Below are positions 16,898 to 37,143 of a stretch of DNA of 64,000 bases, piece after piece. Source of the DNA: a virus (taxonomy: Duplodnaviria; Caudoviricetes). The position numbers and the translations under genes were made by a program. A model generated the notes under the pieces. The model was given only the letters and a program-made list of their open reading frames with translations. It was not told where the DNA came from and did not search any database. How positions within the stretch are numbered: position 1 is the first letter of the stretch; each line of letters starts with the position of its first letter. The stretch is from the IMG/VR virus record IMGVR_UViG_3300028392_002123, one strand, 5' to 3'.

Positions 16898-17523
16898 ATG
16901 ACCATTTTAAACCTTTCCTTAGGTATGCCAAAATAATCGCATTTCCAATCGGACTGTGCGAAGAATTCCAAGCTGTGCCATTTATCTTTATATTTAATCA
17001 GATTCTTCGCGGCATCCTGCCAATCTATGTTTAATAACACAGGTTCTATTTTATTTTTAATGGCTGTAATTTCTTCATAGCTGAAACTGTCCCATTCCCA
17101 GTGTAGTATTTCAAATGCATTACCCGCGCGATCCACATAGTCCATGCTGAAATCTAGACCCCATTTAGAACGTATATTAATTATTTTATGAATTAAAGGC
17201 AGTGATTCTGCCCAATACTTTAATTCAGCCAAGGCTGGCCCTGTGTAACCCTTGCGTTCAAATAATAAACTGTGATTTAATACAGCGCCTTCTATTACGT
17301 TGTACTGTGTAAACCAGTCTTGTTTAACAGCACGAATATGATCCCTGTGTAATCTAGGCTTGACATAATTACTGTAAGCATAGTGCTGTTCTAGCACAGT
17401 TAAATCGTAGCCATTTTGATCAAATAGATCTAAGTCTTCTTTAGTGGGAATGTACACTAATTTTTTAATTGGTTTATCCCAGAAAGCCTGGGGATTAAAT
17501 TCATTATTTGTTACGGATAACAT
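16888..17523 (-). CDS. Hypothetical protein
   Basis: 211-aa ORF in the operon, no recognised motif. Confidence 0.6.
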   Translation of the reverse strand: MLSVTNNEFNPQAFWDKPIKKLVYIPTKEDLDLFDQNGYDLTVLEQHYAYSNYVKPRLHRDHIRAVKQDWFTQYNVIEGAVLNHSLLFERKGYTGPALAELKYWAESLPLIHKIINIRSKWGLDFSMDYVDRAGNAFEILHWEWDSFSYEEITAIKNKIEPVLLNIDWQDAAKNLIKYKDKWHSLEFFAQSDWKCDYFGIPKERFKMVIWK

Positions 17524-17529
17524 TTAATT

Positions 17530-18873
17530 TTATTTATTTTTACCGCGGCGCATGTTCATTTGCCAACGTGCCAGCTGTCCTTTACGACCCGATGCATGAC
17601 TGGCCTTTTCCAGTTCGGCCATGGTGGCATGTTTGGGTATGCCATGACGAACGCTGTCTCCGGGGCGACCCGGGCCTTTGCCATCCGCAAAGTTTTCCTC
17701 TACACCCGGTTTTTTAACAGGACTCCAGTGGAACACAGTCATGCCCATACTGGGATATTCTTCCGGTTGCCACTTTGCACCCAGTATGTTCTGTATCACA
17801 GGAACAAAATACCGACGATATAAGCTGGCACGGTTATCACCTTTGGCAGTAAATGATACGCCAGGTGGACGAGCTTTGGCCATGTATTCAGGCAACTGTC
17901 GTTTAACAATATCAAGAACTGTGCTCAATATTTTCACTGTTGATCGGCTGGCACTTGTGGCCTGGCTTGGTGTGTCGTAATTGCCATTCACAGCAAATGT
18001 GATGTGCAAGGTGTCATTGAATTCACTGCGATCAAAGAACACATCTACCCAGTGGCCATCCACAGTGGCATGAAACAGACTGCGCTTTCGCTTGCGATTG
18101 GGCTTGTATTCAGCAGGTGCATTGCCCAGCTCAGTGATGGGCTCAACAGCAATCCAAGCCATGATATCGGTCTTGTTCAACAACTCGGCCGCGGCCCATG
18201 CTCTATGATTACCGTCTAAGATATAATTATTAGAATCTAAGACAATAGGATGTTTATCTATATAATGTAAACTGTGTTCTCCGGCATGTTCTGGATCAAT
18301 ATACATAACACGATTATAAGGATCATCGGTTTCACTGCCTTGTTCTTCATCATTGTATTCTTGATCGGGTATATGTATATCGGCCAGTGGCACACGTTTT
18401 AATTCATATTCTGGATATTTCATTATCAAGTTTTTTAAAAACCCACCACCCTGTTGGTCCTTGGGATGTATTTTACTTACATAACTCCATACTTGTTCAG
18501 CTGAAGCAATCTTAGTAGATATAGATGTTTCCCACACGCGAACATCTTCGCCTTTGTGCTTGTTCCAGAATCCTGCGCCTGCATCAGTTTGATCCCAGCT
18601 ACGCTGTATTTTGTAACCTTGGCTTTTAACAAAGTCATACATTATTTTAGCAATTCCTTGATTACGGAATTTTTCTTTGACAAATAAATCTTGGGGATCT
18701 AATTCCCGACCGTCGCCGATGTTAAATGTAACATGCCCTAGTTCGTTGCCCCAAGTTGAATCAAGTGCATTTACAAACAGTTGGCCATTGTCCTTGACCA
18801 TTCTGAATTGCAGGCCTTCAAAATCTTGTAGTTTACCCTGCTCACGTTCAACTATAAATTCATGTGCTCTCAT
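17530..18873 (-). CDS. Mosaic protein: GNAT acetyltransferase, ParB/Srx-like domain, unknown module and short basic tail
   Basis: FRNQGIAKIMY..AGAGFW (GNAT) and IVLDSNNYILDGNHR (ParB-like) motifs. Linkers VWE, ITE and VEE. N-terminus MRAHEFIVE. Confidence 0.7.
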   Translation of the reverse strand: MRAHEFIVEREQGKLQDFEGLQFRMVKDNGQLFVNALDSTWGNELGHVTFNIGDGRELDPQDLFVKEKFRNQGIAKIMYDFVKSQGYKIQRSWDQTDAGAGFWNKHKGEDVRVWETSISTKIASAEQVWSYVSKIHPKDQQGGGFLKNLIMKYPEYELKRVPLADIHIPDQEYNDEEQGSETDDPYNRVMYIDPEHAGEHSLHYIDKHPIVLDSNNYILDGNHRAWAAAELLNKTDIMAWIAVEPITELGNAPAEYKPNRKRKRSLFHATVDGHWVDVFFDRSEFNDTLHITFAVNGNYDTPSQATSASRSTVKILSTVLDIVKRQLPEYMAKARPPGVSFTAKGDNRASLYRRYFVPVIQNILGAKWQPEEYPSMGMTVFHWSPVKKPGVEENFADGKGPGRPGDSVRHGIPKHATMAELEKASHASGRKGQLARWQMNMRRGKNK

Positions 18874-20798
18874 CTGCTGGCCACCTTAATAGGTTCTCCT
18901 GGCTTGACATGCATGGCGGCCTGCCAATCTCGTGCTTTTTGTTCACGATTTTTTTGTCCTTTTAAGCCAGGATTAATATTCTTTGTAACTTGTTTTGTAT
19001 TGTTAAAACTCTTAGTTCTAGGTCTAACAAACTGTATCCAATACCATATACTGCTCAGCGCGGCCGCTGTGGGTGTGGCCACTATTTCAGGTTTGGCAAC
19101 AAAATCCACAGGATGATTAATAAATTTAGAAATCCACTCTCCGGCTTTTTGATAATTATATTTTCCAGTTAACTGCAAATATCCTCGGCCATGATATTTT
19201 GCGCCATCGCCGGGTTTGTCGTTGCCCAATATTTTGGCCTTGGCTGGATTAAATCTTATATCATATTTCTTTGCAAATTGTTCAGGAGTGCCATATTCAT
19301 TCATGGTGTTAAAGTTATCACTTTCATGAGCACACTGAGCCATAAATGCCGCTAACTCTGCGGGATTTTTAATAAATTGTTTGGCCCATTTTAATAAAAA
19401 ATCTACCTTGGGATTATTAGCCACGGACTGTGGTTTAGTATCTGTTTTTGCCTGTGCGCCCAAGGCGCTTACTGTGGCGCCTCCGGCCATGCCTTTAAGG
19501 AATCCTCTGCGATCAATGTCTTCCCCTACATCTTGTTTTATTCTTACTAGGTCAAATCCAATATGGTCACCGGTATCATGTACATTTTTTAATTGATATC
19601 CCCAGGATGTAGCATAACGTTGAAGTAACTTTGAATATAAACTAATTCTACTGTCTTTTCCTTGTTCTTCGCCTTTGGCGCCGGTAAATGATATAAATCT
19701 CGGCTGTTCTTTTGTCGTTAGAAATTCTTGTATGGCACTTAATACTGTGGCAAAGATTCTCTGTGAATCACCGTCGCCAGTTGCATCTTGACTATTGTTT
19801 CTCCAAAATTCAACGGTGTACACATCATCATCTTCTTTATTGAACATGATACTTAAATTAGAACCGTCTGGTAATTTAGTATACGCATCGTGGTCACCAA
19901 ACTCCCCGTGTTCCCATTGAAGCGGATAGGGCTGATTAAAGGCTTCCTCCAGACTTTCAGGAGTCCAGGCCATGTTTTTACTGCCCTTGACTGTGGGTTT
20001 GAATCCCTGTCCCTTATAGAATTTTGTCAGTTTGGCCTGGCTTACCTGTCCTTTGTCCCAGGGATATAGTGTAAGACTTATATTATCTTCTCGGGCCAGC
20101 CGCTGTAGTTCCGCCATGGCGCGAGTACCCACTCCTTGACGCAGAGGATATGCTTGAAACCATTTGACTTCCACAGCATCTTTTTTGCTCATGCTGGGCA
20201 CTAGATCAAACATGGCAAACTGTTGTTGTTCACCTTCGCCCCATACCATAATATGATTATTTTGAAATGTATGCGGATACAAGTCATAGACCTTTTTAAT
20301 CCAGTCTTTGGCACGTTGAGGTACTGTTAGTTTTATAGTGTCTTCGGCTACATCATGATTCAGCGAATTTGCCAACTGAGATATAGGAACTCCCGCGGCC
20401 TTGTAACCACGTGCTATACGAGCAATATAAGTTTTACGAGGTCTAGTGCCTTCTAAGTGTTCTCTAGTCGCCGGAGTCATAGTGTACAATTCTGCTACAA
20501 CTTTATTGCCGTCAACGTATACTGGCACAGTTTTTCTATCATATAAATGAGGATAACCTTCTGTACGATCTAGTTCGGCCAACATATTTCTGTCCAAGGC
20601 CCATAGTACTCCTACAACTTCTTGACCTGCTTCGGGACGCACATTAGCATATTGAAACATTTCATATTCAAAGTTTTTAAGCACAGCGGTGCCTACAAAA
20701 TCAGCACCACGCATTATCTTAGGATCTGTTAGCATGCCATATGCAAAATAGTATATGGGTACTGCACCTGCTTCTATTAGAAAATCACTGGCTTTCAT
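18870..20798 (-). CDS. Mosaic protein: gamma-glutamylcyclotransferase-like, GNAT, unknown module, and Tat-signal GH19 muramidase/chitinase-like domain
   Basis: YFAYGML..LDRTEGYP (GGCT), PLRQGVGTRAM..KFYKGQGF (GNAT), AAFMAQCAHES..YHGRGYLQLTGKYNY (GH19). Linkers VAE, LEE and VGE. Start MKASDFLIE with ATGA overlap. Confidence 0.75.
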   Translation of the reverse strand: MKASDFLIEAGAVPIYYFAYGMLTDPKIMRGADFVGTAVLKNFEYEMFQYANVRPEAGQEVVGVLWALDRNMLAELDRTEGYPHLYDRKTVPVYVDGNKVVAELYTMTPATREHLEGTRPRKTYIARIARGYKAAGVPISQLANSLNHDVAEDTIKLTVPQRAKDWIKKVYDLYPHTFQNNHIMVWGEGEQQQFAMFDLVPSMSKKDAVEVKWFQAYPLRQGVGTRAMAELQRLAREDNISLTLYPWDKGQVSQAKLTKFYKGQGFKPTVKGSKNMAWTPESLEEAFNQPYPLQWEHGEFGDHDAYTKLPDGSNLSIMFNKEDDDVYTVEFWRNNSQDATGDGDSQRIFATVLSAIQEFLTTKEQPRFISFTGAKGEEQGKDSRISLYSKLLQRYATSWGYQLKNVHDTGDHIGFDLVRIKQDVGEDIDRRGFLKGMAGGATVSALGAQAKTDTKPQSVANNPKVDFLLKWAKQFIKNPAELAAFMAQCAHESDNFNTMNEYGTPEQFAKKYDIRFNPAKAKILGNDKPGDGAKYHGRGYLQLTGKYNYQKAGEWISKFINHPVDFVAKPEIVATPTAAALSSIWYWIQFVRPRTKSFNNTKQVTKNINPGLKGQKNREQKARDWQAAMHVKPGEPIKVASR

Positions 20799-21250
20799 TT
20801 TCCATAGCCCCAATGCTTTTTGCCATTTTTACGGTGCTTTTTAGATTTCTTAATTATTTGATCTGGTTCACCAAAGTCTACTTTAATCACACGACCAGTC
20901 TTGGGATTCTTTGTATAGACTTTAATTTTTTCTTTTTTCTCAATGACAGTTTCTTCACCCATGTGTTTAAAATACTGTACTTCTCGTTCACGCTTTTCAG
21001 CACCAGCATGAGTAGGATACTTACCCAAATTTTTACCAGTTTTTTTGCTTTTTAATTCCCAGCCACCTTTGACTTTGACAATATGTTCTAGCAGAGTCAT
21101 GTCATTTCCCGGAGATTCGACTATGTATGTTGCTATATGAGTTGTTTTATTGATGCCAACAATAACTGTTTCGACAATAGTGCCGTTTATGTTAAATTCT
21201 AAAATATCGCCAATTTCTGGCTGGCCAGTATCAACTTCGTTTAATCGCAT
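20795..21250 (-). CDS. Small basic mosaic protein, possible head-internal protein
   Basis: Starts MRLNE at 21250, downstream of the terminator/TAAATA element. Lys-rich modules follow LLE and GEE. Confidence 0.55.
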   Translation of the reverse strand: MRLNEVDTGQPEIGDILEFNINGTIVETVIVGINKTTHIATYIVESPGNDMTLLEHIVKVKGGWELKSKKTGKNLGKYPTHAGAEKREREVQYFKHMGEETVIEKKEKIKVYTKNPKTGRVIKVDFGEPDQIIKKSKKHRKNGKKHWGYGK

Positions 21251-21253
21251 AAT

Positions 21254-21287
21254 AAAAAAACCCTTGCTAGTATTATTTAGCAAGGGT
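21254..21287 (-). terminator. Rho-independent terminator with a TAAATA box embedded
   Basis: Perfect 10-bp stem ACCCTTGCTA/TAGCAAGGGT with 8-nt loop, followed by a T-run on the minus strand. TAAATA at 21279-21274. Confidence 0.75.
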
Positions 21288-21315
21288 CTGCGAGTTTAAA
21301 ATAATCTGTTAGATA

Positions 21316-36436: not shown

Positions 36437-36703
36437 TTACTTGCCAGCTTTATCAAAAATTTCTTTTTGAATGCCATACCATTCAATCCAAGTATCTAAT
36501 TTAACAGCACATTCGTAGTAGGCAGTATAATTGTTTACCACAGTTTTGGTTAGTTCACTGAACACCGTTGTTTCGGTTGGTATAGTCTGTAACTGTGGAC
36601 ATTTTACTTTGATAACATCGGGTGCATCTGGAAATTTAGTAGTCACAGGAACAGGACTAGCACAACCCGCCAACGCAAGAACTAATAATAAAGAATATTT
36701 CAT
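36437..36703 (-). CDS. Outer-membrane spanin (Rz1-like lipoprotein)
   Basis: Lipobox LAGC, Pro-rich, adjacent to the i-spanin-like gene. Confidence 0.65.
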   Translation of the reverse strand: MKYSLLLVLALAGCASPVPVTTKFPDAPDVIKVKCPQLQTIPTETTVFSELTKTVVNNYTAYYECAVKLDTWIEWYGIQKEIFDKAGK

Positions 36704-37143
36704 TTTGCTTCCTCTACAGTTTTATTTAATGCGGCCGCATTATGCGCCTTGACCACAGGAGCAGGTACAGGACAGGTATTGTCAAGTTTTGTAATTTCTC
36801 TATCAACATATTTAACAACTTCACTGCCAGGGATTCGAACTAGTTCTAATTTTTTAACAACTCGTTCTACAATTTTTACATTTTGTTTTTGACTTTCGGC
36901 CTCTGCTTTTGCTAACTTAGTTTCTACTTCTTTTACTTTAAGTTGCCAAGCATCATAGTCTGCAAGTCCGCCTTCGAGATATACTCCTAAAGATAATATA
37001 AGAATACTACAGACCTGAATAGCCAATCTATATGGCGCAATTTGAGGAATAAATGTCAAAACAAATCCAACAATTATTCCTAATATGCCGGCAATTACTA
37101 CTAAATGAATTGCCCAGTTAGGCAATATAGATAATATCCACAT
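36700..37143 (-). CDS. Inner-membrane spanin (Rz-like)
   Basis: N-terminal TM segments, coiled coil, C-terminal CPVP. Confidence 0.6.
   Translation of the reverse strand: MWILSILPNWAIHLVVIAGILGIIVGFVLTFIPQIAPYRLAIQVCSILILSLGVYLEGGLADYDAWQLKVKEVETKLAKAEAESQKQNVKIVERVVKKLELVRIPGSEVVKYVDREITKLDNTCPVPAPVVKAHNAAALNKTVEEAK

Follow-up and report, generated by a model that had tools for sequence, protein, structure and literature searches.

A putative twin-arginine export signal directly behind a candidate protease site within a presumed phage cargo polyprotein

What does an export signal do in the middle of a phage protein? The question is raised by a 64,000-nucleotide stretch of DNA (the window; IMG/VR record IMGVR_UViG_3300028392_002123) from a giant uncultured phage that is T4-like. 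On its minus strand, a gene at 18870-20798 (642 codons plus stop, from the open reading frame list and its translation) encodes a presumed cargo polyprotein with a twin-arginine translocation (Tat)-type signal, DIDRRGFLKGMAGGATVSALGAQA, ahead of a GH19 peptidoglycan-hydrolase domain. The protein is best explained as a leader followed by a gamma-glutamyl cyclotransferase (GGCT), a GNAT-like module, a DUF6934-like module and, as the fourth and last cassette, the signal together with GH19. Judged from its sequence, DIDRRGFLKGMAGGATVSALGAQA is best explained as a selected, genuine Tat-type export signal, 24 residues long, with which a self-contained GH19 cassette begins. As to its use, we consider it just probable, on balance, that the head protease cuts the cargo and frees the GH19 piece with its Tat signal, and that the Tat system of the next host exports this piece to the periplasm. 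An earlier note on this DNA had proposed that cleavage after Glu would unmask a Tat signal and send GH19 to the periplasm, an interpretation that the sequence comparisons described below support.

The real start codon is most likely the ATG at 20798, which gives a product of 642 residues. Residue numbers in this text follow a longer frame, 18870-20813 on the minus strand, which has 647 codons from a TTG at 20813; the numbering of the 642-residue form, P0002, is lower by 5 (E431 is E426, and residue 432 of 647 is residue 427 of 642). P0002 is identical on four contigs, the longest of 340,548 bp. An assembly artifact or false fusion was rejected as an explanation because the same protein occurs on several contigs and there are dozens of independent fused forms.

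The region in question reads RIKQD-V429-G430-E431 / D432-I-D-R435-R436-G-F-L-K-G-MAGGATVSALG-A453-Q-A455 / K456-TDTKPQSVANNPK, after which the GH19 domain follows. The junction V429-G430-E431 / D432, where the proposed protease cut would expose the signal, lies at 19518-19529 on the minus strand, with E431 encoded by 19521-19523. The signal itself, D432-A455, occupies 19449-19520 on the same strand, with the codons for R435-R436 at 19506-19511 and A453-Q-A455 / K456 at 19446-19457. The earlier note had placed the stretch behind the DVGE linker at exactly 19520-19449 and about 430 residues into the protein, and indeed the signal begins at residue 432 of 647. The note's comparison with the Tat consensus, that is RRxFLK plus an h-region (the hydrophobic segment) and an AxA site, is also borne out, in that the window reads D-R-R-G-F-L-K and the fragment starting at D432 scores above the cut-offs of both Pfam TAT_signal (PF10518; 23.7 bits against 22.7) and TIGR01409 (19.2 against 16.7). 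Within the whole protein, the TAT_signal match at residues 432-452 reaches 18.6 bits, under the 22.7 cut-off. The h-region of 14 residues, MAGGATVSALGAQA, ends in AQA/K, and its mean Kyte-Doolittle value of 0.9 confirms the note's own caution that it is short and weakly hydrophobic. Such short, weakly hydrophobic h-regions are typical of Tat signals. The h-region composition is 38% Ala and 20% Gly.

Among all long frames of the 64-kb window, this is the sole RR.F[LIVM] motif with a hydrophobic tail, and it is the sole signal-like segment in the roughly 4,300 residues of the window's leader-bearing proteins. The module that it precedes is the only one among those proteins with a periplasmic substrate. 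Rather than opening the translated protein, the signal sits deep inside it, with no ATG, GTG or TTG start ahead of it, and from the sequence it would become N-terminal only upon a cut at E431. An AlphaFold model of P0002 places the signal and junction (423-456, predicted local distance difference test (pLDDT) score below 50) between better modeled blocks at 290-420 (mostly 80-94) and 457-635 (95-98); the signal on its own also has a pLDDT below 50. The N-terminal third is poorly modeled because few sequences cover it. A complex prediction for E. coli TatC with the signal fragment gave a score of 0.00 and is not used as evidence either way.

The GH19 domain that the earlier note had placed after the signal is matched by Pfam PF00182 at residues 485-599 (39.6 bits against a cut-off of 25.5). 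With Pfam, PHROG and PDB matches taken together, the domain spans residues 462-640, or 18894-19430 on the minus strand, and GH19 endolysins in the PDB match the cassette with E values down to 3e-20. PHROGs concur in assigning endolysin or chitinase families to the C-terminus, and gamma-glutamyl cyclotransferase to the N-terminus. The catalytic residues E497 (19323-19325) and E506 (19296-19298), nine residues apart, are invariant in 96 relatives, and the domain is modeled with a pLDDT of 95-98.

Two large searches yielded 43 distinct proteins with the same element ahead of GH19, and it is because of this conservation that the motif is not a chance occurrence. Further sets comprised 30 cassettes aligned at about 45% identity, 96 sequences in a whole-protein alignment and 239 relatives surveyed for modules downstream. 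The earlier note had staked its reading on conservation of the RR motif in homologs, and R, R, G, F and L are invariant in the 30 aligned cassettes, with the preceding E-D at least 90% conserved. Ser or Thr stands before RR in 35 of the 43 relatives. TIGR01409 is matched by every one of the 43 (E of 0.01 or better) and Pfam TAT_signal by 34. A small-x-small site lies about 22 residues past RR in 35 of 41 relatives (AxA in 30, VQA in 5), usually with Lys next.

In the 43 relatives the element never opens a protein with Met, and Glu always directly precedes it, in a main register of [V/L/I/M]-x-E/D-[I/M/L]-[S/T]-R-R and a second register of [L/V/I]-x-E/[I/V]-D-R-R. The 43 junctions fall into 21 groups of unrelated upstream sequence; [VLIMFT]-x-E stands directly ahead in 19 groups, or in 20 if LEE/ID is taken in the second register. 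Thus the pattern that the earlier note had pointed to, RRxFL after [VLI]xE ahead of periplasm-acting domains, recurs ahead of GH19 in 21 unrelated upstream contexts. In the alignment of 96 whole proteins, the Glu at P1 (E426 of P0002) is present in at least 90%, and it and Met1 are the only nearly invariant residues outside GH19.

An internal translation start just ahead of RR would yield a separate Tat-GH19 protein from the same mRNA. A Met lies two residues before RR in 12 of the 43 relatives, and of 24 copies examined on viral contigs, 10 have ATG there. Initiation at such a Met would produce MSRRGFL, a textbook Tat start; the window has an Ile codon at this position, with GGGGAA 4 nucleotides upstream of it. 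However, that codon is ATT, and the viral-contig relatives also have TTA (8), ATA (2), CTC (1) and one Phe codon, which are not starts. An internal start also leaves the conserved Glu and the hydrophobic residue at P3 unexplained. With such codons in many copies, it was rejected as a general mechanism, and we consider it very improbable.

The modules ahead of the signal vary widely among relatives and include DUF6934, GNAT, DUF6886 or none, and 13 of the 239 relatives have further modules behind GH19. In P0200 (397 residues), the leader is followed by a signal-like segment, GH19 and then a GGCT cassette, whose start behind Glu reads GLNE/AGEMPIYYFAYGMLTDP. The same GGCT cassette is found in the window protein directly behind the leader, DFLIE/AGAVPIYYFAYGMLTDP, and starts at the same residue: LNE/AGEMPIYYF in P0200 compares with LIE/AGAVPIYYF in the window, for a shared E/AG.(V/M)PIYYFAYGMLTDP. 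In P0129 (1,765 residues), the RR-GH19 cassette is in mid-protein, between NTVAE/ and RLAE/G..VIAE/, with an amidoligase further on. In short, the cassette order is permuted between relatives, and the boundaries fall exactly after Glu. Given a cytoplasmic enzyme downstream of an exported domain, the chain must be cut at the Glu sites to make sense.

Such shuffling might also have left the signal as a mere relic of a Tat-exported GH19 gene that was fused behind other modules and is functionless in the long form. The evident shuffling of cassettes would fit this history, as would the stand-alone state of the gene in the nearest relatives on viral contigs (70-76% identity). A relic should not be so well kept, however: more than 25 long forms with diverse upstream modules retain an invariant RRGFL, the h-region and mostly the AxA site, and there are no decayed copies even though GH19 identities fall to about 40%. 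We therefore give the relic only a small chance.

The signal position can also be filled differently. About 150 other relatives (P0014-P0259; loci L014-L084) have G-W-[K/R]-D-W and an Ala/Gly-rich run directly after Glu, and these segments often end in an AxA-like site, as in LEE/GWKDWVAGAALGAAALSPQAADA/K. LysM or other hydrophobic runs are found at this position in still other relatives. The non-RR segments are slightly more hydrophobic, with a mean best 12-residue Kyte-Doolittle score of 1.75, compared with 1.55 for the RR segments. On a tree of the GH19 domain the two segment types are interleaved, and no fewer than 4 gains or losses of the RR label, separated by well-supported branches, are required to explain its distribution, with labels that are somewhat noisy; RR and non-RR head segments have therefore been exchanged several times. 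The GW[K/R]DW segment looks like a Sec- or signal-anchor-release (SAR)-like counterpart of the Tat cassette. The occurrence of two unrelated export-like segments at one position suggests that the job of that position is export or membrane entry. In several relatives (loci L014, L015, L018, L023, L025, L042, L044, L062 and L074), a leader followed by a run of basic residues (MRAHEFVTE/KKRKRK...) precedes the GWK-GH19 cassette.

Membrane entry need not involve Tat at all. The Ala/Gly-rich segment could be a membrane-insertion or anchoring segment of an ejected head protein that aids DNA entry, with the arginines following the positive-inside rule. The T7 gp16 lytic transglycosylase helps DNA to cross the wall and inner membrane at entry. 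Most relatives, the roughly 150 just described, have a non-RR segment of similar Ala/Gly composition in the same place, and it has been proposed that lysozyme domains in polyvalent phage proteins open the peptidoglycan during invasion (PMC5512222). Positive charge by itself, however, does not account for a full Tat consensus, [ST]-R-R-G-F-L, that is invariant and passes TIGR01409 at E of 0.01 or less in 43 of 43 relatives. A stable membrane span would call for a longer and more hydrophobic h-region, and the peptidase-type AxA site is mostly conserved. We regard insertion without Tat as improbable.

The cargo gene opens with a leader, MKASDFLIE (20772-20798, minus strand), of the kind found on T4 internal proteins, which is about 10 residues long and ends in [L/I]-x-Glu, here L-I-E. 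Leaders of the same type open the downstream neighbor (MRAHEFIVE), several other long modular proteins of the window and most relatives. In sequence, the leader resembles the T4 capsid-targeting sequence (CTS), MKTYQEFIAE. The CTS of T4 internal proteins has 10 residues, of which numbers 8 and 10 control cleavage by gp21; proteins fused to a CTS are packaged, processed and carried into the host (PMC9026906). Cleavage by related prohead proteases is in every case on the C-terminal side of Glu, at a short motif (PMC5694885). The gp21 protease family, PF03420 (Peptidase_S77), was found in four of five large cassette-bearing contigs, including both that are rated complete (374 and 524 kb). It was not found in the three closest viral contigs, but these are fragments that are 11-38% complete, and the negative is uninformative.

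The closest viral-contig relatives are stand-alone proteins of 211-226 residues that have a 9-residue leader followed by the signal, MRAxEF[IV]xE/DMSRRGFLGALG...AQA/K, such that the junction between the two reads MRAxEF[IV]xE/DMSRRGFL, and their genes sit in runs that all start with MRAxEF[IV]xE. In an alternative reading, the signal would function without a cut, or within the cell that makes the protein, whether internal or, in the stand-alone forms, near the N-terminus, to aid lysis or wall remodeling, with the leader serving as n-region. With RR at residues 12-14 of a presequence of about 35 residues, the stand-alone forms have a normal Tat layout, and the conserved AxA site could free the GH19 domain. 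The earlier note went too far in its premise that Tat signals function solely at an N-terminus: in Sco2149, a Rieske protein of actinobacteria, the twin-arginine signal in use is internal (PMC3471235). Since that internal signal works, an uncut internal signal is a rival here too. However, the same leader also opens genes without a signal, and a Tat n-region needs no conservation of Glu and a P3 hydrophobic residue across 21 contexts. In the 13 relatives with modules behind GH19, those modules (identified as GGCT in P0200 and amidoligase in P0129, both of cytoplasmic type) would be dragged across the membrane. Moreover, the cassette is found in leader-gene clusters and not in a lysis cassette, and a separate leaderless GH19 endolysin and a spanin pair are found elsewhere in the window and adjacent to each other in relatives. 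Taken together, we think uncut use unlikely.

That separate endolysin is P0260 (60964-61599, plus strand), a GH19 paralog of 211 residues without leader or signal. Its identity is 49% with the GH19 that immediately precedes the spanin pair of the related contig G004, but only 28% with the cassette GH19, and on these comparisons it is the likely lysis endolysin. In both G004 and G006, the second GH19 is a protein of 209 residues without leader or signal, encoded directly upstream of a membrane-span protein and a small lipoprotein, which is the standard endolysin-spanin arrangement. The window has a spanin-like protein of 147 residues with an N-terminal membrane span (36700-37143, minus strand), overlapped by the gene for a spanin-like lipoprotein of 88 residues with the lipobox LAGC (36437-36703, minus strand), and this pair has its orthologs in the two genes that follow the endolysin in G004 and G006. 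The window pair is not immediately preceded by an endolysin gene; P0260 is about 24 kb from the spanin-like genes, beside a curli-type cassette. One or two GH19 genes are present in each of four relatives searched, and the complete relatives gave no GH24 lysozyme match. Because the phage has a separate leaderless GH19 that is orthologous to a spanin-linked endolysin, the cassette GH19 was rejected as the lysis enzyme.

Secreted and SAR endolysins are likewise muralytic and use the host export machinery by way of a weakly hydrophobic, Ala/Gly-rich export segment. Their signal is truly N-terminal, directs the protein to Sec and is carried by the lysis enzyme, whereas here the segment is internal, of Tat type, at residue 432 of 647 in a protein encoded among cargo genes, and the endolysin of the phage is a different protein that has no signal. 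A tblastn search against cultured phages returned only GH19-domain matches in other contexts, and no cultured phage with this design. Two of the matches show what such contexts are: in E. coli phage vB_EcoM_IME392 (L005), a related GH19 is part of a tape-measure-like protein of 952 residues near sheath and tail genes, and in Synechococcus cyanophage S-B68 (L089) it is part of an 839-residue protein of the baseplate region, beside gp26-like baseplate genes. In both phages the GH19 is a tail component and not head cargo.

The reading that we favor, a cut in the head followed by Tat export in the next host, builds on what can be observed directly, namely the motif, its conservation, its position after Glu, the modularity, the leader clusters, the protease genes of relatives and the separate endolysin. 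Like the CTS of T4, the leader MKASDFLIE would steer the polyprotein into the core of the prohead. There, a protease of the T4 gp21 type would cut after E14, E157, E290 and E431, at [V/L/I]-x-E junctions, and the cut at V-G-E431/D432 would yield a piece of 216 residues with the Tat signal as its new N-terminus. The pieces would leave the head with the DNA and enter the next host, where the cytoplasmic enzymes would remain in the cytoplasm. TatABC of that host would recognize the GH19 piece and move it to the periplasm. Finally, signal peptidase I would trim it after AQA455, and GH19 could act on peptidoglycan early in infection. Tat operates after translation and moves folded proteins. Because it works post-translationally, it suits a protein that arrives ready-made. 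A periplasmic muramidase at this early stage could possibly serve to loosen the wall, to enlarge the cell or to exclude other phages.

Several points weigh against this reading. Packaging, cleavage, ejection, Tat export and the purpose of the enzyme are steps that we infer. The gp21-type protease is seen in related contigs and, for this phage, is putative. The host Tat system is presumed, and the benefit of an early periplasmic muramidase is hypothetical. In the window signal, Asp rather than Ser or Thr precedes RR, and 6 of 41 relatives are without a clear small-x-small peptidase site. The signal of the stand-alone forms, with its RR so close to the start, could be an ordinary N-terminal Tat signal that acts uncut in the producer cell, and internal Tat signals can function uncut (PMC3471235).

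Many related phages keep the layout of a cut-site-like Glu, a Tat signal and a cell-wall enzyme, which suggests a two-step address code. In its general form, a CTS leader and Glu-specific cuts by the head protease would constitute the first address, and a host export signal the second, delivering enzymes to the periplasm at the start of infection. Cassettes that act outside the cytoplasm would start with an export signal, of Tat type here and Sec- or SAR-like in many relatives. We offer this broader code tentatively, as one that has a real but less than even chance of being right.

The design has partial counterparts in known systems. T4 internal proteins (IPI, IPII, IPIII and Alt) also have a short leader ending in [L/I]-x-Glu and are encoded in clusters of leader genes; gp21 cuts after Glu and the cargo is delivered with the DNA (PMC9026906, PMC5694885), and genes of the gp21 family are present in contigs related to the one described here. 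In contrast, T4 internal proteins are single, small and act in the cytoplasm, whereas here unrelated enzymes are strung together and one has an export signal. We know of no T4-type internal protein that carries a Tat or Sec signal.

The bipartite presequences of thylakoid-lumen proteins are closer in logic, with two addresses in series, the second of which, a twin-arginine or Sec-type signal, is exposed by a protease (PMC10267391). Here too, both RR-type and non-RR signal-like variants occur at one position. The likeness is an analogy only: the organism is different, the protease is the stromal processing peptidase rather than a serine protease of the prohead, and there is no homology between the sequences. 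The first compartment is the stroma in the one case and the phage head, then the host cytoplasm, in the other. Sco2149, which is routed by both Sec and Tat, shares with the window protein a natural Tat signal without a free N-terminus (PMC3471235, PMC5449189). Sco2149, however, is a membrane protein inserted by Sec, in which RR stands ahead of the final span and is at no stage released by cleavage; here, the modules before the signal are soluble enzymes and the junction is protease-site-like.

The polyvalent proteins described from phages and conjugative elements by Iyer et al. (2017) also unite disparate enzymatic domains in one polypeptide, as does the window protein (GGCT, GNAT-like, DUF6934-like and GH19). 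Lysozyme domains are frequent in polyvalent proteins, for which entry together with the DNA and processing into separate units have been predicted (PMC5512222). The processing has been proposed to occur via embedded zincin metallopeptidases (PMC5512222), whereas Pfam and PHROG scans of the window protein found no peptidase domain, zincin-like ones included. The text of that paper contains neither "signal peptide" nor "twin-arginine", and its lysozyme domains are assumed to act at invasion from outside (PMC5512222). In the literature on twin-arginine signals together with endolysins, prohead proteases or virions, this design was not found described.

If the proposal is true, signals that become exposed only once the head has matured would direct injected head cargo to different compartments of the host, a new principle in phage biology that is akin to the bipartite presequences of the chloroplast lumen. 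The Tat system of a host could then take up a protein made in another cell, and the re-export of an injected enzyme by the translocase of the new host would be an effector-delivery route undescribed for any phage. It would also explain why peptidoglycan hydrolases are found within cargo polyproteins beside cytoplasmic enzymes, and would point to early remodeling of the host wall by giant freshwater phages. In practical terms, such signals would provide an independent, sequence-based handle on where uncharacterized polyproteins are cut.

The remaining modules of the cargo protein, all on the minus strand, are arranged between further candidate cut sites. The GGCT cassette begins at A15, directly behind the Glu of the leader, and its GGACT/AIG2 module is at 20385-20750 (residues 22-143; Pfam PF06094 at 3.7e-14, and PF13772). 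Candidate cut site 1, V155-A156-E157 / D158 (20340-20351), was read from the sequence between GGCT and the next module, within a segment of pLDDT below 50 (137-159 in P0002 numbering). The middle module (19944-20339; residues 159-290) looks GNAT-like from its motif LRQGVGTRAM; a Pfam scan gave no match for these residues, and relatives, P0006 among them, have GNAT domains at the equivalent position. Candidate cut site 2, L288-E289-E290 / A291 (19941-19952), likewise read from the sequence, is located in the model at the edge of a low-confidence stretch, just ahead of a folded domain. That domain is the DUF6934-like module (19539-19931; residues 295-425), with a phrog_16075 match at 2e-12, a weak Pfam DUF6934 match (18.1 bits, residues 341-401) and block-mean pLDDT values mostly of 80-94 (290-420 of P0002). 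It adjoins the GH19 cassette upstream here and in many relatives, where PF22028 co-occurs, and may serve the hydrolase as a partner or inhibit it.

A megablast search of 17500-21300 against cultured phages gave no match, and an exact 41-mer from the window had no match in viral contigs. The T4 late-promoter word, TATAAATA, is uninformative because it occurs once in the window against about 7 copies expected by chance. The cargo gene is the middle one of a three-gene run on the minus strand (21250 to 17530), preceded by a gene for a protein of 151 residues that starts MRLNEV (20795-21250) and followed by the gene for the 447-residue protein with the leader MRAHEFIVE (17530-18873). Neighboring genes overlap in stop and start as ATGA, at 18870-18873 and 20795-20798, and these overlaps, which join three leader-bearing genes, suggest translational coupling of the three. 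Upstream of the run, at 21250-21290 on the minus strand, a 9-bp GC-rich hairpin (CCCTTGCTA...TAGCAAGGG) with a T-run and a loop that includes TAAATA ends 3 nucleotides ahead of the ATG of the first gene.

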